Source of the DNA: a virus
Lineage: Duplodnaviria > Caudoviricetes
Strand: one strand, 5' to 3'
Virus record (IMG/VR): IMGVR_UViG_3300032213_000911
Location: 2,042-66,041 of that record
Length of the DNA stretch: 64,000 nucleotides
Shown here: positions 30,237-63,300 of the stretch, one piece after another
Position numbering within the stretch: the stretch's first letter is position 1
How the letters are laid out: each line of letters begins with the position of its first letter
Program-made: the position numbers and the translations under genes
The notes under the pieces: generated by a model
What the model was told of the DNA's origin: nothing
Database searches by the model: none
The model's input: the letters and a program-made list of their open reading frames with translations, nothing else

Positions 30237-30280
30237 TCTACTTATTCATGGCACATTAGTCCCCAGAAAGGTAATCAAAA

Positions 30281-33200: not shown

Positions 33201-36200
33201 TAGTAAATTTAAGATTACCAGAAAGAGCAGGTCTTAATAGAATTGAACTATCTATTGGAAATCTAAAAGAAGGTGTACTTGGTAATAATAAACTAGTAAC
33301 AAAAGCAGATGGTACTACTGTTCTACAAATTACTTTAGACGGTAAAACACTAGCAAAAGCTTTAGAGACAGGTGATAATGCTCTTATTGCTCATACTGTT
33401 TTACATGAATTAGGACATGCTTATTCTTATTTTGCAACACCACAAGATGTTTTAAAAATACTTACAATGTATAGTGAGTTCCTAGATCCAGAAGTTTTAG
33501 AAGCTTTTATTAATATTACAGAAGCAACTAGGGGTGGATTAGCAGATAGTGTTGGCCTCTATGCAGCGATTAATCCCGGAGAAGTATTTGCAAATCACTT
33601 TGCTAATCAAGGATTAGTAACTGGTTTAGACTCAGCAGCAAAATTAAGACTATCGTTCCTAGAAGCTTTTAGTACTTATATTGAAAGCATTATTGATGGT
33701 ATTGCCGATGTATTTACTTTTGATAATACAACCAAACTTAAACTCAAGAGAATTAGTAAAGTATTAAACGAAGTAATTGAAAACATCTCTCAAACATCTA
33801 ATGTTAATACAGTAACTTTAATTGATTTTGTAAAGCAAGAAAGAGATTTTACAAACTCTTTAGTAAAATCATCTTTATATACTTCAGATAAAAAACAGTA
33901 TCAAAAAAATATTATTGATGAGATTAAAAAAATTATTAGTACTATTGAACCAAAAGCAGCTAACAAATTTAATAGTGAAATTTTAAACTGGTTAAATGGT
34001 ATTGAAGTATATGGCAAGATAAGTATAAAAATGTTAGAACCACTTATTGATTTAGATTTTAATAATCAATTAAAAATACCATTAAAAGCTTTAACAGAAA
34101 AATATGGTACTATTATTAAATTCCCAGAAAATATGAGTAATCTAGCTAAACTTGAAATGCTATTAAACCCAGAAAATACACTAGCAGTTCAATTACAACA
34201 TGAGTTAAACTTTGTAACACAATATGATGCTATTAAAAATATTGTTAAAACAGCTGAGTTAACATCAACAAGAATAGGACTAGAGCGTTATTTAATTACA
34301 AATAAACTAGACGCTCTACCATCAATCCAAGCACTCAATGATTTTGCAAAGACAGAAGGAAAATATATTTCATCTGGTCTTAATAGATACTTAAGTACAT
34401 TTATATTTGGATTAGAAAATATTAATGAAAATATTATTAGATTAGAAGAACTAAACTCAAAAGCAAAAAATAAATCTATTCTTAGACAAAATGTATTTAA
34501 TCTAAAAAATGGATCAAGTTTTAATAATAAGATTATTTTTAGACCTAGTTTTGATACTGGCTTAGATGATACTAGTTTGGTATTATATCATGGTGGAACA
34601 TGGACTGGAGCAAAAGCACCTAATATGTTACATTCAGGTACTTTACAAGCAGCTATTGATCGTGCTGGTACTAATTTAACTCCAACATCTGATACAAATA
34701 TTGTTGCATTTACAGTTTCAAAAGAAGCAAATATTATTGAAATGGTTGATACTGGCACTAATCATATGAGTTTTGAAGATTACTGGAAAGCAATTAGTTA
34801 TGCTTATAGATCTAAACCAGATCAAACTTTAGGTGATATTCTTAGAACTATTATAGTAGATAAGAAAAAAGCAAATGAAATAATAACATCTCTTGAACAA
34901 GGTTATAAAGAAACTCAAACTGAAATCAAAGTTTTTGAAACACCAAATGATTTAAAAGAAATTCTTAAACAAGCTGGTGTAGATATAATTAAATATAAAA
35001 ATGTTGGTGAAGATATTGGATCAACTTCTTTTATTATTGTAAATCCAAATAGTATTAGTGTTAAAGCAAATGGTAAATTTGATAATGGTTTTGTTTGGAC
35101 TTGGAGATCTAGATCAACAGGTAAAATACTTGATAATCTTACTCAAGATTTACATGATATTAATTATCGTGGTTCTGATAGTTTACAAACTATTATTAAA
35201 GTATTGCCAGATCTAAGTGGAATTATGGCTGATGCTTCAGAAGCAATTAGTATTCAAAAAGAAGTTGAATTTAAACCAACAACTATTACTGAAGTAACAG
35301 CAGAAACTAAACCACTATTAGAACAAGAACTAAACAATCTATTAATAAAAGTCGAAGGATTAAAACCATCTTTCTTTAAAAGATTAACTGGTGTTGTTAA
35401 AGCTACCACATCTTTGGTTATTTCACCAGAAGATGCTAAATCAACACTTACAGATGTTTGGTTTGCTAGCAAGGCACAATTAGATAAAAACGAAGTTCCT
35501 TTAATTCTTAAAGCAAAATCAGAAACTGAAATATTTAGAATAGTTGCTGGTTTTAAAAAGAATATTTCACTTAAAGAATTAGAAGCAAGAGCTAAGAGTG
35601 GTAAAGTTAGTGGAATAGATTCAGCTGAAAATGTAGATGTTATTGCTGGATTAGCTAATAGAAATAATGAAACTATTGATGATGCTGCTACTGATCTTGA
35701 TGCATTAAGAAAGCGTCTTAGTGATTTCTCTAACTTCCTTAATAACAATAGACCAGTTTTTAGTGGTAATGTAGTTAATGAGATTCAAGAACTAATGAAA
35801 ATTCGTTTAGAATATAGTAAACTAACAAAAGGATTTAAAGCCGGAAAAACACCAAAGCTTCCAGCTGGAGCTGCATTAGAATTATATTTTAGAAGATTTC
35901 CTGAAGAACGAAGAGTTTATGATAACGCTTTAAAAGAAATCCCAAAGCATCCATTATTTAATAAAGCTATAGAAATAATTGCTGATGTTTTAAATGATAA
36001 AAATCCACAAATATTTAATGCATTATTACAAAGAAGATTGGGTATTAGTGAAAAAGAAGCTATAGCTATTAAAGAACAGTTAATACAAACTGGTGTAATA
36101 GAAAAACAACCAATTACATTTGCTCACAATATTTTAGTAACAAAAGAACAGTTAAAAAAATATATTGAATTAACAGCTATACCTTCTAAAGAAAATAAAG

Positions 36201-39200
36201 AAAAAGTATTAGAAATAAAAAAGAAAGCTACATCTTTACTAACAAGAATTCAAAAACAAGAAAAATTTGCTCTTGAAGAATTTAATGACATGGTTCAATC
36301 CGAAAGACCGATTCAATCTGAAAAAGTATTACATGATGCTATTTTAGAAAAAGTTTCTAAGTCAGAAGATAAAGCTATTGATACTCAACAAACAAAAGTA
36401 GAAAACCAAGTTAAGGATCAAGCACAACTTAAAGAAAACAAAGCAGCTCTAACATCAAAAGAAGAAACACCAGAAATTGCTGCTCCAGTTATTAAAGGTA
36501 TTGGAAATAAAGAATCCTTTATCTCTAGTGATTGGGACGGTGATCCAAATAAACTAGAACTAGGTCTTATCTTTACAAACGAAAAAAGAGCTGCTAATGT
36601 AAAGAAAAAACAAAGTTCAAAGTATACTGTAAGAGTAGAACTTGATAAGAGTAAAGTATTTAAAGTTGTTTCAGCTGGTACTTCTGCTTATCAAGCAATT
36701 AAAAATCTACCAGAACCAATTCTAAGAATAGCTGGTATTAATAAATCTATTATGGAAAGAGTTCTTGGTGCAGTTACAAAAGAACATTCTGAACAAGAAG
36801 CATTCAGAGTTATTCTTAATAAACTAAATGAAGAAGGATATACTGCTGTAGAGTTTATTGATTTAAAGGGAAATCTTATTGGTCATTCTCCAACTTCTAA
36901 AGATAATGTAAAAGTAGTTGAAACATTAAACCACGAAGAAACTAAAAAAGTTGGTTATACTAAGTTAGATGCTGCTAGAAAAAAGAAAATTACTGAACCA
37001 AAACCAACAGCTAAACCAGAACCAGAATCAATTAGAGTAGAACCAGAAGCACCAATTGATCCAGTTGATACAGTAGTTCCAGTTTCAAAGACTGGTGAAC
37101 CAGATGTAGAAACAGCACCAATTACTAAAGGTGAGTCTGATATTCCAGTTATTTCTGAGGAAGAAAAGTTTGTGCATGAAGTTTTAAATGCTAGTGAAAC
37201 TTTAAGATGGAATGGAACTACACCAAAGATTATTCGATTAGCTCTTGTTAAGTTTATGTCAGCAGCTAAAGAACTAAGAGAAAATATTGGAGTTGACTTA
37301 AAGGGTATTCCAGAAGAATTTAAAGGATTGCTATATAAAGTTGTTCGTGTTGCTGAAGAAATTGCAGAAGAAAACCGAACAAGATTTGGCGATCTTTATG
37401 AAAATATTAATAATGAATTCTGGACTATATTCGATAGAGAAGTAGCTAAAGAAATTCTACACCGTAGTAAACCAGATGGCGAACTATCTGTAAGAACTAT
37501 TGGAGATATTATTGATTTTGCTCATCAAAAAATTAATGAAAATATTATTATTAAGAATAAACGAGATGGTACTAGTTTACCAGAATTCTTAAGACCAATT
37601 AGCCCAGATGAATTTGAATTTACAAGTTCAAAACTAACTAATAAAATGCCTGATGATGTGAAGTTTAAAAAAGGTTCTCTTGCTAGTTCTATGGATAAAA
37701 GAATTGAAAAGAGAATTGAAGATGCTGCTAAAGCACCAGAAGAAAAAGCACCAGTAACTAAAGAACTAGAAGAAGATGAAGTTGCTGATGCAGTTCTCGG
37801 AGCAATTAATAGTAATCCAAAAGATAATACCATGTTATTAAGAGAGTCTAATTGGATTAGTGCTGTATTTGGCGGTAGTCAAAGAGATGGAAGAAACTGG
37901 TGGCGTAAGTTAATGAACGGTCTTGTAAATGTTATTGAAGTAAGAGCACAAACTGCCTATACTGCAAGATCTCTTTCAAACATTGTAAGAACTATTTCTG
38001 CATTTGCTGATAACTCAAAAGCACACATCCATAATCTAGTTGGTGGTGGAAAGAATGCTATTAAGAGTTGGGAACAATGTAGCCATGAAACTTGGCGTAT
38101 GCTAAGTGGTATTCGTAACTCTGCCACAACACTAGCTCAATCATTAGGTAATGAAAGAATTTATAGTTTAATTAGTGTTGAAATTATGAAAAGCTTTGCC
38201 ACTAAAACACCACTAGATAGAGCAAAACTTGAAGCAGTTATTCGTACAGTAATTCCAACACCATCTGTTGAATATCTAAATACTAACATACTAAATATCA
38301 CTAGTCTACATAATGCTGTAGCAGAAGTAAATAAAACACTATTAGATTTAGAAACAGAAACTGGCTTTATTAAAAAGGGAATTAGTTTAGTAGATAAAGA
38401 CGGTAATGCAGTTAAGCCAACTGAATACTACCCAATTACTTTTGTTGGTGAACTAGTTACTAGAGAAAATCAAGATGCTGTTATTAAGGAAATGGTACGG
38501 GTTCGTACTGCAACTTTAAATGCTTCTGATAAACTAGATAATACAGTTATGTTATCTATGGGATGGTTCTATAATAAAGAAGGTTATGTATTAGATCGTG
38601 GTCGTAGTTTAGAAGGCAGACAACAGTTCTTCTTAAACGAAGCAGACTTTGATGCTCAAACTTTAATTAATCTAGAAGAAAGAAGATATCCACCCGGAAC
38701 CGATCCAAAAACAATGATTGAATTCCGTGGTGAAGCTAGCAATAGACATTTTACATATAAAGATCCAACAACAAAAGAATTGGTTGTTTGTAGACTACCA
38801 AGAGAAAAAACAGACCTATCAGCTGTTGACTTAGTTAAATACAATGAAACAGTAATGGGCAGTAATGCACATGTTGGTAAGCAATGGAAAGCAAACTTTA
38901 CTGGTAAGATGTCTGTTCTTGAAGTAATGATGCAAGATTTATTAGACTCTAAACTTTATCGTGGAAAGTATAGTAAAGATCTTGCTACAAGAAAAGGCAA
39001 TGCAACTACACCAATGCTTGCACTAACAGATAATGCAAGACTAGAACACGGCTCTGTAATTCCAACTTTAACTTGGGAAGAAATATTAGCTAGTGATACT
39101 ATTACAAAAATTATGCGACATGAGCCACTAGAAGCTTATTCAAACTTTGTTGTTAGTAGAGGATTTGAACTCTTAGTACAAAAAGAAATTGATAGACTTA

Positions 39201-41023
39201 CTGGAACTAAGGGTGTACGGATGGGTAATTTTATGCGTATTCTTTACAATAAAGCAAGGGAAGAAGCATATGCTTTAGGTGGAGAAAAGAGAGCTTCTGA
39301 AATTGATGCTGGGTTTGATAGACTATCTAATGATTATTTAGCTTATCAAAATAGATTGTCAATGATTCAAACAAGAGGAGAACGGTTAGCTACTGAATCT
39401 ACCGAAATCGGTCTTGGTCTTGTTAGAGCACTTAGCGGAACATTGTGGGGTATTACTGGTAGTGCTGAACCATTACAGCATCTAATCATGTCTCCATTTA
39501 CAGTAGGTCCAATGCAAACTATTAAGAATATTTGGGAAACAGTTAGAATCCTTATTGGAGATAAACGGTTCTCAACTAGTGCAGCATTAAAAGATGAAAT
39601 GATGGAAAGCATATTCTTTATGGATCTTGTAAGAGCAGATACTCAAGATAGATTACTTAATCTTGATGGAGATGGAGTACCAAGAATTAGTCGCTGGTTT
39701 GATCGTCTAAAAGCTAGAAGAGAAGATTCTTCTACTTTAGGTAAAGGTGTAGATATATTTGCTAATACAATGGTTGAAATTGGTTCTTCAAGATACACTA
39801 CATTCCTTGCACGAAAACTAGCAATGCAAAGATTCAGTACACGGTTTGCTAAGTTTATTAATAATGGAGCAGCTGAAAGATTCTTTACAAAGTTATCAGA
39901 TCCAATTGTTCAATCAAGAATGAGAGCATTAGAAGAAGCCGCAGCTACTGATATAAAAGCAGCCAAAGAATTAGACAAGATGTTTAAAGAAATAAGCAGA
40001 CAGTCCGGCTTTGGTGGTCGTTGGGATGTAGCTATGGCTATGAATAAATACGGCATTAATACTGTTGAGCGTATTACAGCACTAAAAAAAATGTTTGATA
40101 AGCTAGGCCCACAATATTCAAAGTCTGGTTTAATTAATTGGAAAGAGCTTAGAACAGTTGTTGATGAGCTAAAGAAAACACCAATCATTAGAGATCTTAA
40201 TTATGATGTTGCCAGAGATGCTTATGAGTCATTTATCTTTGCTACAGAAAGCATGGTAACAACTGAAGGTGCTATCTCTGCTAGTCGTGGTTTAAATAGA
40301 GATCTTAGAATTGAAGGTAGAACACCATCAGGTAGATTGTTTAAATCTCTACTTGGTTGGTCACAGAGTTTCTATAATAATGTTCTAGGAAATCACGGTG
40401 GTATTAAATCATCTGCCTTAATAGGTAGTATGGTTCTATATACAGGTTTAACCGCAATATCTGAATACATGAAAGAATGGATTAGAGGTAGGGATTGGGA
40501 AGACATCAAGGAAGAAATGACTAAAGATCCAGAAACATTTATCTATAGAATGATGATGAACCTTCCAGCATTGGGCGGTCTATCTGGTAATCTTCAGTAT
40601 GTCTTAGCTAAAACCAGCGAAGCAACTGGTGGTCCACTAAAAGCATTTAGAACCCCAATGATGGCTCCTGCTTATGCTATGGCTATGCAACAACCATTCA
40701 AGATGGCTAACTCTTTATATAATTTAGTTACTAATTCAATACCATCTGGAGATATTCCTGCAACTATGTCAGATCTTGGTAGTGTAACTATGATTAATAA
40801 TTTATTCAATAACTCACCAGTAGCAGTTCCAGCTAGACTCCTAGTAGAAAATAAGTTTATTACCGAAGGTGATGCTTTGGGTAAATATATGAAGTTAATT
40901 AATAAAACAAAGAATACCTATAAAAAGGGTTCTAAGTACAATGGTCCTAGCTTTGTTCAAGATGACGAAACAATGAAAAGACTAGTGGCCGAAATCATTA
41001 GAAGACAGTCTCAACCCAAATAA
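30281..41023 (+). CDS. giant (3580 aa) internal virion/ejection protein, polyvalent
   Basis: Uninterrupted ORF, last structural gene; HELGH zincin motif, YHGG ART-like domain, FtsK-gamma-like helix set, hydrophobic segments near both ends. Confidence 0.85.
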   Translation: MYNPYNKDTNYNYSTKYGAPLYGNIDPDVWYTATQPVNFFRSFFSNTPFGVGDSEKAREGVLPSVTLEDMNKLANWSFTPPTQNDMDTYMRLSYLSQGGYSGLIGRDVDQTAKYRATLGFGANPYVDIAKPLLENLPPSEVQKQNQNNPWYDYFLSQNPEIGIDPETKEKYFVDKNGNRIKEFSPNSNPAIKLDGDYISNKDPRWQELSKANVQDGTWYRLQKSLQAEGSLPSLLLAGVAYATKEKANTAFGVAMPGSLDQMTKELLGEVSLASYDSMLNPFNSAGIDDDIKKYLEPTAEEKINGFNSNKWWTENINPEVIPFLAQKGITPDSIAPAKGAREALAKVQFALSESTIQQRMGRYNVENPWKSGIIATLGYTLPTALINDPDLALTLGLSVATLGAGTLVRGGIKGLELTASSAKAAARIEKILQTAKQSKLVSAAQGLYQISMGDLPLWFKNYSYLQKVGIGAGIAGAVNAGASVRDHLNRVSFATTGLYNNNQDEDMLSEITSSFIAGAVFGGVLGSLGHLAHPDIGGNKYTARPDLKTNALRLINDANGTEKSLLNETPQQRAALNEGISASREEMTVRAENRPPDILEPTKENVQPNSVEVIDQRGNRIRVQEEDITSISEVSEKILSGEYKVVRDQRNKTDVAIRSELNPITEKPKIVSEEVPLNAAEKHVVDSEKFADAADTARRASAGTLAEATDSTALDRTAGESDISFATRLIRANHIRNLSDLFKITQDKSSSQKSIVGKLVQFKKQTESIKTTLNEVLEKKLVNFIKEEEVRILLQKLDKFVEDDLDIRLSKALDTGTGAFNKLTPEKRSSMIFFIQDHAGKTDDEIKKLINESSFDSNEKRMLKNRLLEKKPRAQRKKLIDEILADNSISDKSRKILNTLLGTPENLTLTQRKLASGAYRKEKYFFKKASYLTGEFYLDFKGVLDKTLDTLTLGNKTAAKANADLITGLVRSALVNLRLPERAGLNRIELSIGNLKEGVLGNNKLVTKADGTTVLQITLDGKTLAKALETGDNALIAHTVLHELGHAYSYFATPQDVLKILTMYSEFLDPEVLEAFINITEATRGGLADSVGLYAAINPGEVFANHFANQGLVTGLDSAAKLRLSFLEAFSTYIESIIDGIADVFTFDNTTKLKLKRISKVLNEVIENISQTSNVNTVTLIDFVKQERDFTNSLVKSSLYTSDKKQYQKNIIDEIKKIISTIEPKAANKFNSEILNWLNGIEVYGKISIKMLEPLIDLDFNNQLKIPLKALTEKYGTIIKFPENMSNLAKLEMLLNPENTLAVQLQHELNFVTQYDAIKNIVKTAELTSTRIGLERYLITNKLDALPSIQALNDFAKTEGKYISSGLNRYLSTFIFGLENINENIIRLEELNSKAKNKSILRQNVFNLKNGSSFNNKIIFRPSFDTGLDDTSLVLYHGGTWTGAKAPNMLHSGTLQAAIDRAGTNLTPTSDTNIVAFTVSKEANIIEMVDTGTNHMSFEDYWKAISYAYRSKPDQTLGDILRTIIVDKKKANEIITSLEQGYKETQTEIKVFETPNDLKEILKQAGVDIIKYKNVGEDIGSTSFIIVNPNSISVKANGKFDNGFVWTWRSRSTGKILDNLTQDLHDINYRGSDSLQTIIKVLPDLSGIMADASEAISIQKEVEFKPTTITEVTAETKPLLEQELNNLLIKVEGLKPSFFKRLTGVVKATTSLVISPEDAKSTLTDVWFASKAQLDKNEVPLILKAKSETEIFRIVAGFKKNISLKELEARAKSGKVSGIDSAENVDVIAGLANRNNETIDDAATDLDALRKRLSDFSNFLNNNRPVFSGNVVNEIQELMKIRLEYSKLTKGFKAGKTPKLPAGAALELYFRRFPEERRVYDNALKEIPKHPLFNKAIEIIADVLNDKNPQIFNALLQRRLGISEKEAIAIKEQLIQTGVIEKQPITFAHNILVTKEQLKKYIELTAIPSKENKEKVLEIKKKATSLLTRIQKQEKFALEEFNDMVQSERPIQSEKVLHDAILEKVSKSEDKAIDTQQTKVENQVKDQAQLKENKAALTSKEETPEIAAPVIKGIGNKESFISSDWDGDPNKLELGLIFTNEKRAANVKKKQSSKYTVRVELDKSKVFKVVSAGTSAYQAIKNLPEPILRIAGINKSIMERVLGAVTKEHSEQEAFRVILNKLNEEGYTAVEFIDLKGNLIGHSPTSKDNVKVVETLNHEETKKVGYTKLDAARKKKITEPKPTAKPEPESIRVEPEAPIDPVDTVVPVSKTGEPDVETAPITKGESDIPVISEEEKFVHEVLNASETLRWNGTTPKIIRLALVKFMSAAKELRENIGVDLKGIPEEFKGLLYKVVRVAEEIAEENRTRFGDLYENINNEFWTIFDREVAKEILHRSKPDGELSVRTIGDIIDFAHQKINENIIIKNKRDGTSLPEFLRPISPDEFEFTSSKLTNKMPDDVKFKKGSLASSMDKRIEKRIEDAAKAPEEKAPVTKELEEDEVADAVLGAINSNPKDNTMLLRESNWISAVFGGSQRDGRNWWRKLMNGLVNVIEVRAQTAYTARSLSNIVRTISAFADNSKAHIHNLVGGGKNAIKSWEQCSHETWRMLSGIRNSATTLAQSLGNERIYSLISVEIMKSFATKTPLDRAKLEAVIRTVIPTPSVEYLNTNILNITSLHNAVAEVNKTLLDLETETGFIKKGISLVDKDGNAVKPTEYYPITFVGELVTRENQDAVIKEMVRVRTATLNASDKLDNTVMLSMGWFYNKEGYVLDRGRSLEGRQQFFLNEADFDAQTLINLEERRYPPGTDPKTMIEFRGEASNRHFTYKDPTTKELVVCRLPREKTDLSAVDLVKYNETVMGSNAHVGKQWKANFTGKMSVLEVMMQDLLDSKLYRGKYSKDLATRKGNATTPMLALTDNARLEHGSVIPTLTWEEILASDTITKIMRHEPLEAYSNFVVSRGFELLVQKEIDRLTGTKGVRMGNFMRILYNKAREEAYALGGEKRASEIDAGFDRLSNDYLAYQNRLSMIQTRGERLATESTEIGLGLVRALSGTLWGITGSAEPLQHLIMSPFTVGPMQTIKNIWETVRILIGDKRFSTSAALKDEMMESIFFMDLVRADTQDRLLNLDGDGVPRISRWFDRLKARREDSSTLGKGVDIFANTMVEIGSSRYTTFLARKLAMQRFSTRFAKFINNGAAERFFTKLSDPIVQSRMRALEEAAATDIKAAKELDKMFKEISRQSGFGGRWDVAMAMNKYGINTVERITALKKMFDKLGPQYSKSGLINWKELRTVVDELKKTPIIRDLNYDVARDAYESFIFATESMVTTEGAISASRGLNRDLRIEGRTPSGRLFKSLLGWSQSFYNNVLGNHGGIKSSALIGSMVLYTGLTAISEYMKEWIRGRDWEDIKEEMTKDPETFIYRMMMNLPALGGLSGNLQYVLAKTSEATGGPLKAFRTPMMAPAYAMAMQQPFKMANSLYNLVTNSIPSGDIPATMSDLGSVTMINNLFNNSPVAVPARLLVENKFITEGDALGKYMKLINKTKNTYKKGSKYNGPSFVQDDETMKRLVAEIIRRQSQPK

Positions 41024-48860: not shown

Positions 48861-49868
48861 ATGGCTCACGAGATTATGGAAAAGGATACTGCTGTGTTTA
48901 ACCGAGTTGCTGCTTGGCATCGTCTTGGTACTGTTGTTGATTCGGATATGTCGCCTAATGATGCTTTGATGGCTGCTGGTCTTGACTGGAATGTTTACAA
49001 GTCTTCTTTTATCAAGGCTAGTATTCCTAACTGTGATGATGTGTTTAGTACTGATTACGCTGCTCTTATTCGTGAAGACACGAAGGAAATTCTTAGTGTT
49101 CAGTCAGCTGATTATCAGGTGATTCAGAACAAGGAACACTTTGAGATGGCTTATGAACTTAGTAATGATGTTAAGGTTGAGTCTGCGCTTAGTCTTAAGA
49201 ATGGTCGCAAGGTTGTTCTTCTTCTTCGTGGTGATACCTTTGATGTTGCTGGCTCTAGTGGCGATACTGTTACGGAATACATGGGTCTAATCAATAGCCA
49301 TGATGGTAGTATTGCTTTCTCTGCCTTGCCAACAAGTGTTCGTATTGTTTGTCAGAATACTCTTAGCATGGCAATTGCTAAGGCTCGTCGTGGAAAGAAT
49401 ATGTTTAGAATTACCCACAAGGGTTCTACTATGGAAGACAAGAAGGATGCAATGCGTGAAGCACTTCGTGAATTCAAGTCTAGTGGTAAGTTCTTCCGTG
49501 AGACTGTTAATACTCTTGCAAGCCGTGAACTTACCAAGAATGATATTCAGAAGTTCTGGATGGATGTTTGGGGTATGATTGAGGCTCCCATTGTTTCTAA
49601 TCCAAGCAATGGACATGAACAGAATAATTACGACAATGCTCTAAAGGCTGTGTCTAATTGGTCTGAAACCTTTGACCGTGAAAGGGATGAGACTAAGAGT
49701 AGAGCTAGTATCTGGATGGCTGCTAATGCTGTTAGCAAGTTTATCCAGCATCGTACTGCCGCTAGAGGTCGTGTGGCAAAGCCTGAGAATCGTGCATGGG
49801 ATAATCTTGCAGGACTTACTCAGGATGATACTATGAAGGTTTTCCGTCACGCTCTTACTCTTGTCTAA
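48861..49868 (+). CDS. DUF932-family phage/plasmid protein
   Basis: MAHE...AWHRLG, AGLDWNV, YQVIQN, NSHDGS, VRIVCQNTL motifs. Confidence 0.85.
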   Translation: MAHEIMEKDTAVFNRVAAWHRLGTVVDSDMSPNDALMAAGLDWNVYKSSFIKASIPNCDDVFSTDYAALIREDTKEILSVQSADYQVIQNKEHFEMAYELSNDVKVESALSLKNGRKVVLLLRGDTFDVAGSSGDTVTEYMGLINSHDGSIAFSALPTSVRIVCQNTLSMAIAKARRGKNMFRITHKGSTMEDKKDAMREALREFKSSGKFFRETVNTLASRELTKNDIQKFWMDVWGMIEAPIVSNPSNGHEQNNYDNALKAVSNWSETFDRERDETKSRASIWMAANAVSKFIQHRTAARGRVAKPENRAWDNLAGLTQDDTMKVFRHALTLV

Positions 49869-55183: not shown

Positions 55184-55266
55184 TCTTTGGTAGTTTAAAC
55201 TAGTAGAACAGTATACATTTACCCCAAGCGTGTATAAAGATGGTGGTGCAAATCCACCCCAACGAT
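55184..55266 (+). ncRNA. tRNA-like element with 13-nt anticodon loop
   Basis: TCTTTGG/CCAACGA acceptor (1 mismatch), GTTT/GAAC D stem, TATACA/TGTATA stem, GGTGG-TGCAAAT-CCACC T arm. Confidence 0.7.
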
Positions 55267-55284
55267 TTAAAAGGAGATTTAATT

Positions 55285-55944
55285 ATGGATAAGTTAGTAG
55301 AATATATTGATCATATGGGTACTGATGCTTCTGTTGTTAATGCAGCCAGAGTTTCTTTTGATAAACTTGCTGAAAACTATTCTCCAGAACAAAACGATAA
55401 ACTTATTAAGTTCTTGGCAAAGCATAAACATTGGAGTCCTTTTTCTCATACAAGTATTTCTATGAGATTTAAGGCTCCTGTTTTTATCGCACGACAATTA
55501 GCAAAACATCAGGTTGGTTTTGCTTGGAATGAAATCAGTCGCCGTTATGTTAACTTTACTCCAGATTGTTGGATTCCAGATGCATTTAGAATGCGTGCTG
55601 AAAATAAAAAGCAAGGTTCATCTGATGAGGTTATTAATGATTCATCAATAATGCTTGATTATAAGAACATGTGTTCAGCTGCCTTGATCATGTACGATAG
55701 ACTACTTGAGCGTGGCGTGTGTCCTGAGCAAGCACGGGCTGTTCTGCCGCAGGCTATGTACACCGAGTGGATCTGGACAGGTTCATTGTATGCGTGGCTC
55801 AGGATGGCTATGCTTCGGTCACACGATACGGCACAGGCAGAAGTGAGAGTATATGCTAAAGCTGTTGGTTCAATTTGTAGTAATTTATTCCCAATAAGCT
55901 GGAGCGCATTAGTAAATGAATCATTGGATAGAACTCTCTCGTAA
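55285..55944 (+). CDS. thyX: FAD-dependent thymidylate synthase
   Basis: VNAARVS, HWSPF, ARQLAKH...NEISRRY, EQARAVLP, AQAEVR; AGGAG RBS favours ATG 55285. Confidence 0.95.
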   Translation: MDKLVEYIDHMGTDASVVNAARVSFDKLAENYSPEQNDKLIKFLAKHKHWSPFSHTSISMRFKAPVFIARQLAKHQVGFAWNEISRRYVNFTPDCWIPDAFRMRAENKKQGSSDEVINDSSIMLDYKNMCSAALIMYDRLLERGVCPEQARAVLPQAMYTEWIWTGSLYAWLRMAMLRSHDTAQAEVRVYAKAVGSICSNLFPISWSALVNESLDRTLS

Positions 55945-56269
55945 AATTTCTGAAACAGTTCAAAGAGATCGTGCTCATATTTCTTTGGTTATTAGAAAAA
56001 ATAAAGTAATTGCTGTTGGTACTAATAACTGGAAGACACACCCAAAGACTGTTGAACTTGGTTATATGTTACCTTATCTTCACTCTGAGTTAGATGCAGT
56101 AAAAAAAATTCAATGTAGTATGGATAAACTTATTCTTGTTAATACTAGGTTTAGTAAGACTGGTCATATTGGAATGTCGAGGCCATGTAAGTATTGTATG
56201 CCTTGGTGTACTAATATGTTTGATAAAATTTATTATACTAATGAAGAAGGGATTCTTGTTGAACTATGA
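55916..56269 (+). CDS. zinc-dependent cytidine/dCMP deaminase-superfamily protein
   Basis: HSE (HxE) and SRPCKYC (PCxxC) motifs. Confidence 0.8.
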   Translation: MNHWIELSRKISETVQRDRAHISLVIRKNKVIAVGTNNWKTHPKTVELGYMLPYLHSELDAVKKIQCSMDKLILVNTRFSKTGHIGMSRPCKYCMPWCTNMFDKIYYTNEEGILVEL

Positions 56270-56574
56270 AAATTAATGAAACATTTAAAATTATATCAAG
56301 GTATGGACAGCCTAGAGTAGTTACGAAGGTTGCCAGAAATAAGTATATTATTGATGGGCCTTCTGCTTATTATAGAGGAGGCACTTCTAATGATGGACAT
56401 CCTTTTATTGATTATGATGGCGGTCCTTTTGTATGCACGGGTGATTCAATGTCGTTCTATGGAGGAACGGAAAAGGAAAGAATTGCGTCGATTGAGATTA
56501 TTGAGTCATCTCAAGAAGGATTCTTAACAGTAGAAATATTGACTAGATCTAAAGATAAGGTATTAAAACTATGA
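56266..56574 (+). CDS. hypothetical protein
   Basis: ATGA overlaps at both ends; SRYG...DYDGGPF pattern. Confidence 0.65.
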   Translation: MKINETFKIISRYGQPRVVTKVARNKYIIDGPSAYYRGGTSNDGHPFIDYDGGPFVCTGDSMSFYGGTEKERIASIEIIESSQEGFLTVEILTRSKDKVLKL

Positions 56575-58319
56575 GTAGCACATTTACTGGCAAGCGTACA
56601 CAATGTCCAAAGTGTGCTGCTTCTGGACTTGATAACAAAGGTAATAATTTTGCAGAGTATACAGATCATTGGTATTGCTTTGCTTGTCAACACTATGAAG
56701 GAAAGGATGGAGTAACTAGAACTATGGAAACAGATACAACATTTACTAGTGCTGAATTCAAGCCAACAAAGGGTACTGTAACTGGCCTTTCTCATCGTAA
56801 TATTGATGACAAGACTTGCAGGCTTTATGGTTATGAATCAGCTAAGGTTAACGGCAAGGAAGTAGAAATTTCAAATTACTATAAGTCAGGTTCACTTGTT
56901 GCCCAACATCTTCGTGGTCCTAACAAGCAATTCTTTTGGAAAGGTAATAGCCGAAATGTAGAGTTATTCGGCCAGCATCTTTGGAAGAATGGTGGCAAGC
57001 GTCTTGTGATTACTGAGGGTGAAATTGACTGCATGACGGTTAATCAATTGCTTGGTGGTACTTGGCCAGTTGTTTCTATTCCTAATGGAGCACAGTCTGC
57101 CGTCAAAGCAATCAAAGATAACTATGAATTTGTGTGCAGTTATAACGAAATTGTGCTTTGCTTTGATGGTGATGAACCCGGCAGAAATGCTACTAAGCAG
57201 GTGGCTGAATTACTACCACCCGGCAAGTGCAAGATTGCTAAGTTGCCTTACAAGGATGCTAATGAATGTTTAATGAATGCCAACGGCAAGGCTGTTGTTT
57301 CTGCTATCTGGGAAGCACAGCAGTATTCTCCAGATGAGATTTTACATATTTCGTCAATTGTAAATGACGGAGAGGATATTGCAAATGTTAGAGTATACCC
57401 GTTTCCCTTCGATTCACTTAGCGAGTATCTTATTGGCCAGCGTAGTGGTGAAATTACTTTATGGGCTAGTGGAACTGGTAGTGGTAAGTCTACTATTCTT
57501 CGTGAGCTTATCATTCACCATCTTGAAGAAGGCAGATCAGTTGGTGCAATCATGCTTGAAGAATCACCACAAGAAACTATGGATGACATGATTAGCTTGT
57601 TGCTTAACAAGCCAGTCCGTGCTATTCGTGCTTGTAGGATGATGAATGATCTTCGTGTTAAGCTTGGCAAGTCACCAATCAACATGGACTATATTGATGA
57701 TCTATCTGATGAAGAGTATGCTGATGCAAAGCGTAAGCTTAGTGGCACTAACTTCTTTATCTATGACCATCTTGGTAACAATGCTATGCAGAATCTACTT
57801 GCTCGTATGGAGTACATGGCTGTCAGTCTTAAGGTTGATGTAATTGTTCTAGATCACATTACCGCTGCCGCAGCTGGTCTTATGGGTATGCATGATAAAG
57901 ATACTGATGGTGGTAACTCAGAGCGTATCATTATTGATACACTTATGAAGGAACTACGATCTCTTGCTGTTCGTACTGGTGTGCATGTTGATATTGTATC
58001 ACAACTTAAGAAGACCGACAAGGCTTATGAAGAGGGTGATCGTATTACTCTACAGGATCTTCGTGGTTCAGGTGCATTGTCATCCGTACCAAATACTGTA
58101 GTTGCTCTTGAGCGTGATCGTCAGAATGCAGATGAAACTGTTGCGAATACAACTCTAATTCGTGTACTCAAAAATCGTCTAACTGGTCGCGCTGGTATTG
58201 CTACTGCACTATTCTATGATCGTAAGACTGGTAGAATGAAAGAAGTTGGCTTTGCGATTGATGATGGTGGTCAAGTTATTTATAATCCAGCAGAAGGAAC
58301 TACTGATGTTAACAGCTGA
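56571..58319 (+). CDS. primase-helicase, T7 gp4-like
   Basis: CPKC/CFAC zinc finger, ITEGEID, FDGDEPG, KDANE, SGTGSGKST, LDHI, DLRGSG, LERD, KNR.TG. Confidence 0.96.
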   Translation: MSSTFTGKRTQCPKCAASGLDNKGNNFAEYTDHWYCFACQHYEGKDGVTRTMETDTTFTSAEFKPTKGTVTGLSHRNIDDKTCRLYGYESAKVNGKEVEISNYYKSGSLVAQHLRGPNKQFFWKGNSRNVELFGQHLWKNGGKRLVITEGEIDCMTVNQLLGGTWPVVSIPNGAQSAVKAIKDNYEFVCSYNEIVLCFDGDEPGRNATKQVAELLPPGKCKIAKLPYKDANECLMNANGKAVVSAIWEAQQYSPDEILHISSIVNDGEDIANVRVYPFPFDSLSEYLIGQRSGEITLWASGTGSGKSTILRELIIHHLEEGRSVGAIMLEESPQETMDDMISLLLNKPVRAIRACRMMNDLRVKLGKSPINMDYIDDLSDEEYADAKRKLSGTNFFIYDHLGNNAMQNLLARMEYMAVSLKVDVIVLDHITAAAAGLMGMHDKDTDGGNSERIIIDTLMKELRSLAVRTGVHVDIVSQLKKTDKAYEEGDRITLQDLRGSGALSSVPNTVVALERDRQNADETVANTTLIRVLKNRLTGRAGIATALFYDRKTGRMKEVGFAIDDGGQVIYNPAEGTTDVNS

Positions 58320-59352
58320 TATTGTATTTGGATTAGCGTGGGGTGATGAAGGTAAGGGTAAGGTTGTATCTGGTATTCTTAGTCGTAAAAAAAGATACAA
58401 CTATGTATGTAGATGGAATGGTGGTCCCAATGCTGGACATACCGTTTATCTAAATGGTAAAAAGTATAAGACTCACCAGATTCCTAGTGGTGTATTCCAT
58501 GATGTTACTTCTATTATTGGACCAAACTGTGTTGTAGATCCAATCAAACTTAATGAAGAAATTAAGTATATGGAAGAAAATGGATTTAATCCACGAAAGT
58601 ATCTTAAGATTCATCCTCATGCTAATATTATTACTCAAGAACATATTAGATATGATCAACAATTCTTAGCAGCTAAGTTGGGAACAACTGGTTGTGGTAT
58701 TGCTCCTTGCTATGCAGACCGATCTTTACGAAAGGGTTTGCTAGCTAAAGAATATTATTCCTATGCTTCGTCTAATACTACAGATCTACTATGGAATATG
58801 CACTTTAAAGATAGATCACATATCTTATGTGAAGGTGCTCAAGGTATGTGGTTAGATATAAATCAAGGTACTCCACCATATACCACAAGTTCAGAAACTC
58901 TTCCATATGCTGCTTGCTCTCTAGGTTTCTCTCATAGAGAAATTGGTGAAGTCATTGGAGTTGCTAAAGCATACGATACCCGTAGTGGCGAAGATCCACG
59001 ATTCCCTAATTCATTATTGGAATGCCCAGATAGAGGAATAATTGGGGCTACTGGTAAGGAATACGGCACAACAACTGGCCGTAAGAGAAAGGTTGACTTC
59101 TTAGATTTAGATGCTTTAATGAAGGCTATTGACCTAAGTGGAACAACTAGAGTAATTATTAATAAAGGTGATGTATTAGAACAATGCGGTATTTTCAAGA
59201 TTAAACATAATAGAGAAATTGTTTCATTCAATTCATATGCAGATATGAAGAATCATATTATTGGATATCTTGTAAATGTCTGTTGGATTGATGAATCACT
59301 TATTAGTTTTTCTAATGATCCTGAATCAATTCCAAAGGAGTTTTCTGTATGA
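58306..59352 (+). CDS. purA: adenylosuccinate synthetase (short form)
   Basis: GLAWGDEGKGK, GGPNAGHT, EGAQG, TTTGRKR, NKGD; catalytic Asp retained, so not PurZ. Confidence 0.92.
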   Translation: MLTADIVFGLAWGDEGKGKVVSGILSRKKRYNYVCRWNGGPNAGHTVYLNGKKYKTHQIPSGVFHDVTSIIGPNCVVDPIKLNEEIKYMEENGFNPRKYLKIHPHANIITQEHIRYDQQFLAAKLGTTGCGIAPCYADRSLRKGLLAKEYYSYASSNTTDLLWNMHFKDRSHILCEGAQGMWLDINQGTPPYTTSSETLPYAACSLGFSHREIGEVIGVAKAYDTRSGEDPRFPNSLLECPDRGIIGATGKEYGTTTGRKRKVDFLDLDALMKAIDLSGTTRVIINKGDVLEQCGIFKIKHNREIVSFNSYADMKNHIIGYLVNVCWIDESLISFSNDPESIPKEFSV

Positions 59353-60413
59353 AAGTAGAAGAAGATATTAAGTTAGATTTTAGAGATGTACTTATTCGAC
59401 CAAAGAGATCAACCCTCAATAGTCGAAGCGAAGTATCAATGACTAGAACTTTTAAGTTTAGTCTACCTAATGGACTTATGCAATGGTCTGGTACTCCAAT
59501 TGTAGCCAGTAATATGGATACTGTTGGTAATTGGGATGTTGCACAAGAACTAGCAGGGTTTAATGCACTAACGGCACTACATAAATATTATACTGTAAAT
59601 GAATGGAAGGATGCAAATGTTCTTGCTGGTAATCTATCTAATAATATTATCTATACTATGGGCATGGGGAAGGATAACTTTGCTGAGATTGACAAGGCAC
59701 AACAAATTATTAATCTTTATCCAAGTATTAGATTTATCTGTATTGATGTTGCTAATGGATATACAGAAAAGTTTGTTAAGTATGTCTCAACAGTAAGGGG
59801 GCTATTTCCTAATCAAGCAATTATTGCTGGTAATGTTGTATCCCGTGAAATGACTGAAGCTTTACTATTGGCTGGTGCTAATATCATTAAGATTGGTATT
59901 GGTCCCGGTTCAGTATGTACAACTAGAAAGGTTGCTGGTGTTGGCTATCCGCAACTGTCGTGTATCATGGAATGTGCTGATGCCGCACACGGACTCAATG
60001 GCTATGTTCTATCGGATGGTGGTTGCACTTGTCCGGGGGATGTAGCCAAGGCATTTGGAGCGGGTGCAGATTTTGTAATGGTTGGTGGTATGTTTGCTGG
60101 TTGTGATGAAGCTGGTGGTAAAACCATAATGAAAGAATTAGAAGGATCTATGTATCCTATTTCTAAGCAGTTTTATGGTATGTCATCAGATACTGCTATG
60201 GGTAAGTATTCTGGTGGCGTAGCTACTTATAGAGCATCTGAAGGTAAGACTGTAAATGTACCATATACTGGTCCTGTTTCAGAAACGATGCAATCAATTC
60301 TTGGTGGTGTTCGTTCTGCCTGTACTTATGTTGGAGCAGATAAACTAAAGGATCTACCAAAGAGAACTACATTCGTAAGAGTTAACAGACAGCTTAACGA
60401 TTTCTTTGAATAA
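59349..60413 (+). CDS. guaC: GMP reductase
   Basis: KLDFRDVLIRPKRSTL.SR, NMDTVG, IDVANGY, GIGPGSVCTTR, FYGMSS, YRASEGK, GGVRSACTYVGA. Confidence 0.93.
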   Translation: MKVEEDIKLDFRDVLIRPKRSTLNSRSEVSMTRTFKFSLPNGLMQWSGTPIVASNMDTVGNWDVAQELAGFNALTALHKYYTVNEWKDANVLAGNLSNNIIYTMGMGKDNFAEIDKAQQIINLYPSIRFICIDVANGYTEKFVKYVSTVRGLFPNQAIIAGNVVSREMTEALLLAGANIIKIGIGPGSVCTTRKVAGVGYPQLSCIMECADAAHGLNGYVLSDGGCTCPGDVAKAFGAGADFVMVGGMFAGCDEAGGKTIMKELEGSMYPISKQFYGMSSDTAMGKYSGGVATYRASEGKTVNVPYTGPVSETMQSILGGVRSACTYVGADKLKDLPKRTTFVRVNRQLNDFFE

Positions 60414-60423
60414 GGAGTATACT

Positions 60424-62121
60424 ATGAGACTAGTACTTGATGTTGAGGCAAACGGTTTGAATGAAGTTTCTCTTGATGGTAACAAGATCACCAAAGAAGC
60501 TGACACTATCCATTGTGCCGTAGCACATGATCTTGATTCAGGTACTACTTATAAGTTTACTAAAGATAATATCATGGCCCTACTAAGTCTTTTAGATAAA
60601 GCAACAATTATAATCGGCCATAATATTTTCTTTGATATTTCTGCTATTCGTAAGATTGTTGGTAATTTCAAGTGTACTAAGTATCACGACACGCTCATTA
60701 TATCAAAGTTAATGTATCCAGATATTAATGACCACCCACTTGGAGATAACTCTCTACAGTCTTGGGGCAAGTTCCTCAAGAATGATAAGATTGATTACCA
60801 AGGTGGATGGGAAACATTCTCAGAAGAAATGTTAACTTACTGTGTGCAAGATGTTATGCTTACCGCAGATATCTTTCGCTATCAACAAATCCATTGCAAG
60901 GTTCCAGACCGTGTAGTTAAGTTTGAACATCTGGTATCAAAGATTCTTGCAGAGCAAACTACTTCCGGTATTGGTTTTAACTCAAATGCTGGTGACAAAC
61001 TAATTGGTGAACTCTTAATTGAAAGGGCTAAGATTGAAGACGAGATGCGTCAAATCTTTCCAGACAAAATTATTGAGCGTTATTCACAAAAAACAAACAA
61101 ACGCCTCAAAGATAAAATTGAAATTTTTAATCCCGGTTCTCGTCAGCAGATTGCAAGTAGACTATTTGAAAAGTATGGATGGGAAGCACCACTCACAGAC
61201 AAAGGAAATCCAAAAGTTGATGAAGAAGTTTTGTCAAAGCTTGACTTTCCTGAAGCAAAGAAACTAGTTCAATACTTTGATTGTATTAAATTAATGGGTC
61301 AAGTAGAAGATTGGAACACACGATCTCATCACTCTAGGGATGGGCGGATTCACGGGCGTGTAAACGCACAGGGAGCCTCCACAGGGCGTTGCACACATAG
61401 CCAACCCAACATGGCACAGGTTAGCAAAGATCCCCGTGCTAGGGCTTTATTCTGCCCCATACAAAAGGATCATGTTCTAGTTGGTGCTGACTTGCAAGGT
61501 CTTGAATTAAGAATGCTATCTCATTTCATGGCAAAGTATGACAACGGTAAGTATGGTGATAAAATCTTAAACGATGATATTCATACCTATAATCAAAAAG
61601 CAGCAGGACTTCCTAACAGAGATGCTGCCAAGACCTTTATCTATGCCTATTGCTATGGGGCTGGAGATGAAAAGCTAGGAAAGATTATTGGTGGGAATAG
61701 AAACGCTGGTAGTCAGATTAGATCTAAATTCCAAAAAGAAATTCCTGCTCTTGACAAAGTACAACAAGAAGTAAAGTTTTCTGTAGCAAAGACTAAGGGT
61801 GTACAGTTACCAGATGGTCGTACTGTTCCAGTAAGATCAGAACACGCCGCACTAAACACACTTTTACAGGGTTCAGGTGCTATTGTCAGTAAACTATGGA
61901 TGTGCATTGCCTATGTTAATTTAAAGAAAAAGTTTGGTAATCAAGTTTATCAAGTTGCTTATGTTCACGACGAATTACAATATTCATGTAGTAAGACTAT
62001 TGCTGATGAAGTAGGTAAAATTGTAACTCTAGCTGCTACAGAGGCTGGCGAAAAGTTGGGCCTTAAGATACGGATTGATGCAAACTATTCTATTGGCTCT
62101 AACTGGAGTGAAACACATTAA
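60424..62121 (+). CDS. family A DNA polymerase, T7 gp5-like (Tyr at the 762-equivalent position)
   Basis: Exonuclease DVE, GHNI..D; motif A DLQGLELR, motif B RDAAKTFIYAYCYG, motif C VHDE. Confidence 0.96.
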   Translation: MRLVLDVEANGLNEVSLDGNKITKEADTIHCAVAHDLDSGTTYKFTKDNIMALLSLLDKATIIIGHNIFFDISAIRKIVGNFKCTKYHDTLIISKLMYPDINDHPLGDNSLQSWGKFLKNDKIDYQGGWETFSEEMLTYCVQDVMLTADIFRYQQIHCKVPDRVVKFEHLVSKILAEQTTSGIGFNSNAGDKLIGELLIERAKIEDEMRQIFPDKIIERYSQKTNKRLKDKIEIFNPGSRQQIASRLFEKYGWEAPLTDKGNPKVDEEVLSKLDFPEAKKLVQYFDCIKLMGQVEDWNTRSHHSRDGRIHGRVNAQGASTGRCTHSQPNMAQVSKDPRARALFCPIQKDHVLVGADLQGLELRMLSHFMAKYDNGKYGDKILNDDIHTYNQKAAGLPNRDAAKTFIYAYCYGAGDEKLGKIIGGNRNAGSQIRSKFQKEIPALDKVQQEVKFSVAKTKGVQLPDGRTVPVRSEHAALNTLLQGSGAIVSKLWMCIAYVNLKKKFGNQVYQVAYVHDELQYSCSKTIADEVGKIVTLAATEAGEKLGLKIRIDANYSIGSNWSETH

Positions 62122-62594
62122 TGAAAGCAGATATATATTTAGCATTTTATGATAACACTACTGGTTTAGGCTGGTTTAGAAGTACTTTAATAAAACTATT
62201 AACAAGATCTAAAGTAACTCATGTTGCTTTAATATTTGATTTACCGTTTGCTAGTTTAACTCCTATGGTTTTAGACGGTGAAAGATGTAGATTGCTTACT
62301 ACATATATCCTTGAGAAAAAAGGAGCGGTTTTAATCTACAAAAAGTACATGGGAAGTTATGATACTTGTATTGAAGAAGTTAAAAAAGTAACAGAAATGC
62401 ATAAAGTAAGTACTTGGTATAAGTTAATTTTTTGGTTTTTCTTTGGTAGATTTATTAAGTATAGACCACACCACTGTGGTACACTAGCAGTTGATTGGTT
62501 AAATAGTAATCTTGGTTACAAACTACAAAACAGAAACATTCCTAGTCTTTTACTAGAGGAGGTACAACATGATCATAGTAATGATTGGCGGTAA
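62121..62594 (+). CDS. permuted papain-like (NlpC/P60-related) protein
   Basis: IKLLTRSKVTHVAL (His) precedes HHCGTLA (Cys). Confidence 0.55.
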   Translation: MKADIYLAFYDNTTGLGWFRSTLIKLLTRSKVTHVALIFDLPFASLTPMVLDGERCRLLTTYILEKKGAVLIYKKYMGSYDTCIEEVKKVTEMHKVSTWYKLIFWFFFGRFIKYRPHHCGTLAVDWLNSNLGYKLQNRNIPSLLLEEVQHDHSNDWR

Positions 62595-63300
62595 GGCAAG
62601 AGTTGGTAAGACTACAATGGCAAATATTATTGCTGAGTATTGTCTAAATAATAACCTTACTCCTAAGATGGTTCCATTTGCTTATGGTCTTAAGAAAGCC
62701 GCTGAAAATAAAGGACTAAGTAAGGATAAGAACTCAGAAGAGTATAGAAAGTTTTGCCAAACACTAGGCGAATCCATGCGAATCAAGAATCCAGATCATT
62801 GGGTAAATGAGTGGACTGCTGCTGTAGAAGCAATTAGAAAAGAAGAACAAACTCTACTAGAAGTCGATGATCTTTGGAAGGAAAGAGTTGTTATTGTTGA
62901 TGATTGTCGCTATATGAACGAAGTAGCTAAGGCTAGAGAATATGGTGCTACAACAATCTTTATTAGACAAGGCAAGAGAAAGCTTATTGAAGATCAGGCT
63001 GAGTGGCGTAATCACCCAAGCGAAGAAATGGCAAACAGTATTGAAAATAATCATAAAGATTATAATGATGTATTTCAATATAAACTCACAAACGATAGCA
63101 CTTTAGATGTGTTTAAAAAACATTGTTTAAAGAATATTCCTACTTGGTTAAATCTTATTGCGGATACAAGTAGAGCCGCTTGTGATTGCGAACTATGCAA
63201 AGCTAATAGAGAAGGTAGAGAGCCTAATCAAGATAAGGTAATCCAAGAATTAATGGATTTACTTGATAAAGCTCTTGAAGAAGAAGAAGGTAAAGAATGA
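62569..63300 (+). CDS. deoxynucleoside monophosphate kinase-like P-loop protein
   Basis: GGKARVGKTT, FAYGLK, R...Q.LG...R, VIVDDCRYMNE, HPSE. Confidence 0.8.
   Translation: MIIVMIGGKARVGKTTMANIIAEYCLNNNLTPKMVPFAYGLKKAAENKGLSKDKNSEEYRKFCQTLGESMRIKNPDHWVNEWTAAVEAIRKEEQTLLEVDDLWKERVVIVDDCRYMNEVAKAREYGATTIFIRQGKRKLIEDQAEWRNHPSEEMANSIENNHKDYNDVFQYKLTNDSTLDVFKKHCLKNIPTWLNLIADTSRAACDCELCKANREGREPNQDKVIQELMDLLDKALEEEEGKE

Follow-up and report, generated by a model that had tools for sequence, protein, structure and literature searches.

Rebalancing of the pyrimidine pool by a deoxycytidine monophosphate (dCMP) deaminase and a thymidylate synthase is a classical phage strategy, and in phage T4 the cd/td pair sets the deoxythymidine triphosphate (dTTP) ratio. 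On the purine side, adenylosuccinate synthetase (PurA) converts inosine monophosphate (IMP), aspartate and guanosine triphosphate (GTP) to adenylosuccinate. Passages of four reports distinguish the related enzyme PurZ by a serine at position 13 and an adenine-stacking donor site (PMC8342488, PMC8515928, bioRxiv 10.1101/2025.10.22.683976, PMC12884076); one passage gives Ser at this position in 100% of 147 phage sequences (PMC12884076), and Ser or Gly is described as replacing Asp13 (PMC12884076, PMC8515928). A viral guanosine monophosphate (GMP) reductase or guaC receives passing mentions in PMC7029224 and PMC13760526, and a passage of bioRxiv 10.1101/2025.10.22.683976 mentions canonical PurA on unmodified aquatic phage contigs. 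Here we analyse a 64,000-nt stretch of viral DNA (the window; bases 2042–66041 of IMG/VR virus record IMGVR_UViG_3300032213_000911), in which a short purA-like gene and guaC overlap each other within the replication operon of an AT-rich, T7-like phage, downstream of an overlapping thyX–deaminase pair. We think it probable that these genes form a module that rebalances nucleotide pools from G to A and from C to T. The genes concerned are:

55240–55944, plus strand: thyX, predicted flavin-dependent thymidylate synthase (deoxyuridine monophosphate, dUMP, to deoxythymidine monophosphate, dTMP); PF02511, 158.8 bits
55916–56269, plus strand: predicted zinc deaminase of the cytidine-deaminase (CDA) fold, 117 aa, with HSE and PCKYC motifs
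56266–56574, plus strand: 102-aa open reading frame (ORF), no assigned function, overlapping each neighbour by 4 nt
56571–58319, plus strand: T7-type primase-helicase with Helic-prim_T7_N, Toprim and DnaB_C domains
58306–59352, plus strand: short PurA-type adenylosuccinate synthetase (predicted), 348 aa; PF00709, 256.7 bits (cut-off 27)
59349–60413, plus strand: guaC, predicted GMP reductase, 354 aa; NF003470, TIGR01305, PDB 2a7r
60406–62121, plus strand: family-A DNA polymerase (polA); PF00476, 152.3 bits; 60406 is the first start codon of the ORF

The seven genes from thyX to the DNA polymerase form one head-to-tail overlapping run. The end of thyX is overlapped by 29 nt by the deaminase ORF, and the purA-like ORF, whose most likely start is the ATG at 58306, overlaps the helicase gene by 14 nt (helicase stop at 58317–58319) and ends at 59352. 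The start of guaC and the stop of purA fall in one ATGA, and an AGGAG precedes guaC by 8 nt. The purA–guaC pair is flanked by the primase-helicase and the family-A DNA polymerase. An initial annotation of this DNA, made from its letters and ORFs, had described both the purA/guaC overlap (ATGA at 59349) between helicase and polymerase and the overlap of thyX with an HxE/PCxxC deaminase gene; the ORF coordinates agree, and the thyX start given there (55285) is Met16 of the 55240–55944 frame, a possible alternative start. The arrangement is not due to chance, since all 18 related viral contigs have purA followed by guaC. The 102-aa ORF between deaminase and helicase is likewise kept in relatives (64–99% identity), with no family match in Pfam, NCBIfam or PHROGs.

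By family, GuaC is a predicted GMP reductase, which would convert GMP and NADPH to IMP and ammonia. It passes two GMP reductase models (NF003470, 521.3 bits against a cut-off of 397; TIGR01305, 496.8 against 492.15) and aligns to GMP reductase 2 (PDB 2a7r, 448.9 bits) across the GIGPGSVCTTR cysteine loop and the YRASEGK segment. Its flap is short and lacks the Arg-Tyr dyad of IMP dehydrogenase (IMPDH), and there is no CBS insert. We take GIGPGSVCTTR to be the catalytic cysteine loop, and the absence of dyad and insert to set GMP reductases apart from IMPDH. An IMPDH identity was considered and rejected, given the two GMP reductase cut-offs passed and a score of 191.6 bits against the IMP_dehydrog cut-off of 481.5; the GMP reductase assignment of the initial annotation holds, and IMP dehydrogenase activity is very unlikely on sequence grounds. 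In two collections, both of limited scope, no cellular or cultured-phage sequence was more than 57% identical to this protein.

Model scores and residues place the upstream partner with PurA rather than with PurZ. Beyond its PF00709 match, the protein scores 249 and 238 bits with PurA models and 106.3 bits with the PurZ model (NF038379, cut-off 300). Among solved structures, bacterial PurA (186 and 173 bits) outscores PurZ (80, 55 and 46 bits), and the protein is collinear, in one stretch, with the 339-aa short PurA of PDB 2d7u. The PDB alignment retains the equivalents of E. coli PurA Asp13, Asn38, His41, Thr128/129, Arg143, Gln224, Thr239, Thr300/301, Arg303, Arg305, Lys331 and Asp333, and the kept catalytic and ligand residues are invariant across 24 family members. 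In particular, GDEGKG and NAGHT, which hold Asp13 and His41, align with PDB 1kjx and are invariant in this family as D14 and H45, and the guanine-specific NKGD, aligned with TKLD of E. coli PurA, has K287 and D289 invariant. Because Asp13, His41, Arg303/305 and NKGD are kept, the active site is predicted to be of PurA type and not of PurZ type, in agreement with the purA call of the initial annotation.

The rest of a Z-genome gene set is also missing from this phage. No match to DatZ (PF12917) or MazG (PF03819) was found in the complete genome, and the DNA polymerase is not DpoZ (66.8 bits against a cut-off of 500). A PurZ or Z-genome identity was therefore rejected, with Asp13 and NKGD kept and the PurZ and DpoZ models both far below their cut-offs.

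The 117-aa protein encoded beside thyX appears to be a real CDA-superfamily enzyme, with a predicted intact zinc site and catalytic glutamate. We assign it to this superfamily because its HSE and PCxxC motifs are invariant, its modelled fold matches CDA proteins, part of its wider relatives match PF00383 and its family profile finds CDA enzymes; the protein itself is placed by fold and by the wider of two profiles (A3). The motifs (H56-S-E58 and P90-C-K-Y-C94) are invariant in both alignments, A1 (32 sequences) and A3 (54 sequences); in A1 the family-specific residues H21, K40, H42, N76 and R78 are invariant too. There are 46 metagenomic homologues, and a profile search with a threshold of E ≤ 0.001 reaches 4,025 cluster representatives. 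An AlphaFold (AF2) model (pLDDT 85.9) matched CDA-fold proteins in all 50 entries listed by VIA, with Z between 10.3 and 8.3, and in BFVD it matched viral proteins named 'cytidine and deoxycytidylate deaminase' (E 2.6e-8, TMq up to 0.84); Foldseek against PDB gave marginal matches (best E 1.9e-3). PF00383 is matched by 29 of the 54 wider relatives (best E 3.1e-7) and not by the 117-aa protein. Searched against PDB sequences, the narrow profile A1 returned no match, whereas with A3 the best solved relatives were dCMP deaminases: cyanophage S-TIM5 (4p9c, 1.2e-7), S. mutans (2hvv, 2e-5) and 2w4l (2.5e-3). The deaminase proposed in the initial annotation is thus a CDA-fold protein nearest dCMP deaminases by family profile, and its putative substrate is most likely dCMP, which it would convert to dUMP. 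The neighbouring ThyX scores above the TIGR02170 cut-off (138.1 against 87.9 bits).

The association of these genes extends well beyond this phage. A first scan yielded 24 loci, 18 of them from T7-like relatives (L001–L018). In IMG/VR, a profile scan then found this short PurA encoded on at least 574 viral stretches, of which the best 80 were examined (the 18 T7-like loci and 62 others). All 18 T7-like relatives carry purA immediately followed by guaC, and a GMPR/IMPDH-family gene lies within 10 kb in 69 of the 80 loci. Outside the T7-like group, 13 of the 62 loci have a GuaC-type gene (≥45% identity) 0.7–5.3 kb upstream of purA, a different gene order; one of these 13 proteins scored 522.7 bits, above the GMP reductase cut-off. 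A further 38 of the 62 have a remote GMPR/IMPDH-family protein (22–32% identity) that lacks the CBS insert and has a short GMPR-like flap without Arg-Tyr, with no NCBIfam model above its cut-off. These remote proteins are about 370 aa long (L040–L101, e.g. L044:6947–8059), on contigs of up to 174 kb. A homologue of the deaminase stands beside 11 of the 13 GuaC-type loci and beside none of the 38 remote-type loci.

One locus goes further. At L023:3232–6993, an adenylosuccinate lyase (545.3 bits, cut-off 446), a GMP reductase (497.7 bits, cut-off 397) and a short PurA are neighbours, with purB and guaC on the minus strand and purA on the plus strand, in a contig of 32% GC content that IMG/VR labels GVMAG. 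This gene set is predicted to encode the whole GMP-to-AMP (adenosine monophosphate) route, and its divergent guaC–purA arrangement recurs in L022. At least two further viral lineages have rebuilt the pairing, one of them with PurB added. The co-occurrence that the initial annotation had proposed to look for was found in the 18 relatives and in independent viral lineages, with the deaminase linked in a second lineage.

Among cultured phages the combination is scarce. GuaC (GMPR/IMPDH-family) matches occur in only 79 of 50,697 phage records, and among the matches listed no genuine cultured phage record has both guaC and purA, overlapping names looking like bacterial contigs. Cultured phages gave no match to the short PurA above 38% identity. 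A GMP reductase is annotated in Caulobacter phage Cr30, Xanthomonas phages XacN1 and Xoo-sp13, and Stenotrophomonas phage RAS14 (35–42% identity).

Within the T7-like group, purA itself occurs as two alleles, 95–98% and 64–66% identical to the window gene, and the helicase and guaC genes beside both stay 84–100% identical; in L004 a purA of 96% identity stands beside a helicase of 85%. The pattern suggests that genes have been replaced inside the module.

If the enzymes act as their families predict, GuaC would reductively deaminate GMP to IMP, the short PurA would join IMP to aspartate at the expense of GTP, and host PurB would release AMP from the adenylosuccinate formed. The last step would need the host lyase, since the complete phage genome has no PurB, which bears out the role that the initial annotation had assigned to the host. 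AMP could then pass through ADP and ATP to dATP by way of host kinases and a phage class II ribonucleotide reductase (RNR), the presence of which fits a route at the ribonucleotide level. In parallel, the deaminase would most likely convert dCMP to dUMP, and ThyX would methylate dUMP to dTMP. The net shift would be from G to A and from C to T, in line with the 64.5% A+T of the genome; the surplus G and C may come from host RNA or host DNA, and the presumed benefit to the phage would be a nucleotide supply closer to its own composition. Further features that bear on this proposal are:

2–628, plus strand: class II (B12) ribonucleotide reductase, C-terminal 208 residues; PF02867 match in the genome
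41253–48683, plus strand: six tRNA genes (Asn-GTT, Lys-TTT, Ile-TAT, Arg-TCT, Leu-TAA, Glu-TTC); ARAGORN, Rfam
62569–63300, plus strand: deoxynucleoside monophosphate (dNMP) kinase; PF21448; phrog_139 deoxynucleoside monophosphate kinase, 80.6 bits
63297–63998, plus strand: 5′-3′ exonuclease (FEN-like), PF02739 and PF01367, both under cut-off; exits the window end

The initial annotation had named an exonuclease, a dNMP kinase and a class II RNR as supporting genes. All three are real ORFs with family matches, the exonuclease scoring under its cut-offs as listed and the whole RNR (628 aa) matching TIGR02505 RTPR at 289.9 bits, below the cut-off of 340. The exonuclease reading frame runs on across the arbitrary end of the record.

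Base composition lends the proposal indirect support. The phage uses AGA for 64% of Arg, TTA for 40% of Leu and GAA for 88% of Glu codons (17.5% GC at third codon positions, GC3), and five of its six tRNAs read such heavily used A-ending codons, a pattern reported for AT-rich phages on GC-richer hosts. In the four cultured phages examined for which a GMP reductase is annotated, local GC content is 38.0% (Cr30), 49.6% (XacN1), 38.9% (Xoo-sp13) and 42.4% (RAS14); the genomes of their recorded hosts, Caulobacter, Xanthomonas and Stenotrophomonas, are about 64–67% GC. Across the 80 short-PurA loci GC content ranges from 24.7% to 48.3%, with none above.

Several observations weigh against nucleotide-pool rebalancing or narrow its form. 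The 38 remote-type loci have a median GC content of 29.5% (range 24.7–43.5%), and such low values suggest that a GC-rich host is not the driver. In one study a GC content of 30–35% served to pick out pelagimyophages, and a GMP reductase is mentioned in one of their groups (PMC7029224). Since these loci also pair a short PurA with a GMPR-family gene, the demand for A may hold whatever the composition of the host chromosome, for example through recycling of G-rich host RNA. If the hosts of low-GC loci are equally AT-rich, the surplus G would more likely come from host RNA than from a GC-rich chromosome. The proposal does not depend on a GC-rich host chromosome, since RNA of the host would serve equally well. 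The 80 loci were taken as the top matches among at least 574 and are no random sample, some are near-duplicates (L035 and L036), and 11 of the 62 other loci lack a GMPR-family gene, 6 of these 11 having less than 2.4 kb of upstream flank.

The individual proteins depart from their models as well. The PurA homologue is under every PurA equivalog cut-off (best 249 against 402 bits, in two stretches), is about 85 residues short of bacterial PurA (348 against about 430 aa), as is the 339-aa form of PDB 2d7u, and has Cys and Ser at the equivalents of E. coli Arg131 and Val273. The 117-aa protein has no match in Pfam (even at E ≤ 10), PHROGs or NCBIfam, and the fold comparison does not discriminate among deaminases acting on dCMP, cytidine, blasticidin, guanine or tRNA. 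The canonical ThyX motif is RHRx7S, and the phage ThyX reads KHQ in place of RHR, with the SRRY after it kept. All 12 relatives compared have the KHQ variant, as do L083 and two cultured phages, Roseobacter phage CRP-171 and Vibrio phage Ceto, in their annotated thymidylate synthases; RHR is kept in three other viral ThyX proteins (L055, L058 and L069). Taken as a whole, the GC-to-AT re-routing put forward in the initial annotation is supported in part, by the enzyme identities and by the co-occurrence of its genes; a GC-rich host chromosome, which it named beside RNA as an example of the source, would be a possible source and not a required one, and low-GC loci carry the pairing too.

The best-surviving alternative is that PurA and GuaC provide a general supply of adenylates, making AMP and ATP for energy and RNA synthesis irrespective of DNA composition, with the proximity of thyX and the deaminase reflecting the usual clustering of nucleotide genes. 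Judged by their families, both enzymes use ribonucleotides; the pair, or the version with a remote GMPR-family protein, is spread over a wide range of locus GC content; and of the 62 other loci only 4 have ThyX close to PurA. This explanation would accommodate all three points. It accounts less well for the link between a deaminase homologue and PurA/GuaC in a second lineage with a different gene order, for the upper bound of 48.3% GC over the 80 loci, and for the position of the genes within a DNA replication operon beside RNR and dNMP kinase. We regard it as unlikely.

A second alternative shifts the conversion to the deoxynucleotide level, where GuaC and the short PurA would accept dGMP and dIMP as substrates. 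The dGMP set free when host DNA is degraded would then be turned to dIMP and, with host PurB, to dAMP. Genes for a T7-like exonuclease and a dNMP kinase lie nearby, the Val273 equivalent is Ser throughout the short viral PurA family, and the related PurZ enzymes use a deoxynucleotide, according to a passage of PMC8342488. The same source describes Arg303 of PurA as contacting the 2′ oxygen of IMP, and its equivalent is kept here; GuaC scores high within the ordinary family of GMP reductases, and the phage RNR already supplies the step from ribo- to deoxynucleotides. Together these points make the deoxynucleotide route improbable. Were it true, it would be a direct purine counterpart of the dCMP–dUMP–dTMP route, and the viral PurA family with Asp13 would be a functional stepping stone towards the dGMP-using PurZ.

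Slightly less probable again is a role in host manipulation or counter-defence, either as a guanylate drain acting on GTP and ppGpp signalling or by re-amination of IMP left by a defence system that attacks adenine nucleotides. PurA would consume GTP and IMP and GuaC would consume GMP, as such a role would entail by inference. Family scans, however, identified no defence or anti-defence gene beside the pair, which is linked with genes for replication and pyrimidine metabolism and, at L023, with PurB. Finally, synthesis of 2-aminoadenine (Z) for a modified genome by a PurZ-type enzyme, to which the short length of the PurA homologue, its place next to a family-A DNA polymerase as in phiVC8-like phages and the 106 bits of the PurZ model might have pointed, is largely refuted by the residues, scores and missing partners set out above and by a GMP reductase that would yield IMP and not dGMP.

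The genomic setting is that of a distant T7-like phage. The 66,041-bp record is a complete genome with 123-bp direct terminal repeats and 35.5% GC content, and all long ORFs of the window are on the plus strand. Its structural module is T7-like (portal, scaffold, capsid, tail tube and terminase), its replication genes are of T7 type, and its RNA polymerase has a single subunit. The closest cultured phages are distant (terminase ≤38.6% and DNA polymerase ≤40.1% identity), and host prediction gave no host, the nearest cultured phages by terminase and polymerase (36–40% identity) spanning many different hosts. A scan of cellular contigs with GuaC, confined to the query's own peptides, found matches of at most 54% identity (CPR bacteria, archaea and Holophagaceae metagenome-assembled genomes) and was uninformative on the host.

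Other parts of the window hold features apart from nucleotide metabolism. After the terminase module, positions 26274–41023 carry two very large ORFs of 1320 aa (with a C-terminal phage lysozyme domain) and 3580 aa, which partly explain the 66-kb size of this T7-like genome. Between 40000 and 44000, GC content rises to 44% against about 35% elsewhere, in a segment with only short ORFs and the tRNA-Asn gene; Rfam gave no family there besides tRNA, and the segment may be an early or regulatory region. A gene of the DUF932/TIGR03299 'phage/plasmid-like protein' family (48861–49868; 164.9 bits, cut-off 110.7) immediately precedes the RNA polymerase gene and comes after a cluster of five tRNA genes.

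Each enzyme of the proposed module is ordinary. What may be new is the purine G-to-A pairing, its link to a small deaminase and how large the family of short viral PurA proteins with Asp13 is. A literature search over full texts, supplements excepted, found no paper describing a phage guaC–purA pair, nor the deaminase linkage, the size of this PurA family or a purine counterpart of pyrimidine rebalancing; viral Asp13 PurA proteins may be listed in the supplementary material of PMC12884076 (Fig. S8) and of bioRxiv 10.1101/2025.10.22.683976 (tables), which could bear on this point. The coupled guaC–purA genes, the recurrence of the pairing and the at least 574 stretches with a short PurA suggest that G-to-A conversion could be a common, overlooked strategy for AT-rich viral genomes. 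For annotation, a phage PurA homologue should not be taken as a marker of PurZ or of a Z-genome unless Asp13 and NKxD have been checked.

Set beside known systems, the PurA homologue shares with PurZ (6fm1, 7odx, 7vf6) its short length, its phage origin and its place next to a PolA-type polymerase, and differs in having Asp rather than Ser at position 13, a kept guanine motif, weak PDB scores and no DatZ, MazZ or DpoZ partners. With PurA, both bacterial (6jrq, 1ade) and archaeal in its short form (2d7u, 5k7x), it has in common the PF00709 domain, Asp13, His41, the IMP and aspartate ligands and NKxD; relative to the bacterial enzyme it is shorter by the margin given above, scores below cut-off and carries the Arg131-to-Cys and Val273-to-Ser replacements. 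GuaC resembles type 1 GMP reductase (NF003470/TIGR01305, PDB 2a7r) in its full-length match, cysteine loop, RASEGK and absence of a CBS insert, but is phage-encoded and overlaps purA and polA.

Among cultured phages, Cr30, XacN1, Xoo-sp13 and RAS14 likewise have an annotated GMP reductase at local GC contents of 38–50%, and in Cr30 it shares a 32.5-kb stretch with dCMP deaminase, thymidylate synthase and RNR. These are large myoviruses or jumbo phages rather than T7-like ones, and Cr30 and XacN1 have no PurA homologue. The thyX–deaminase end of the module corresponds to the phage pairs of dCMP deaminase and thymidylate synthase (T4 cd/td; S-TIM5, PDB 4p9c), in which a CDA-fold zinc deaminase also adjoins a thymidylate synthase, and the S-TIM5 enzyme is the best solved relative of the deaminase family profile. 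Unlike in those pairs, however, the deaminase here is only 117 aa long, does not itself match PF00383 and has ThyX instead of ThyA as its partner, and a second lineage links it with purA and guaC.

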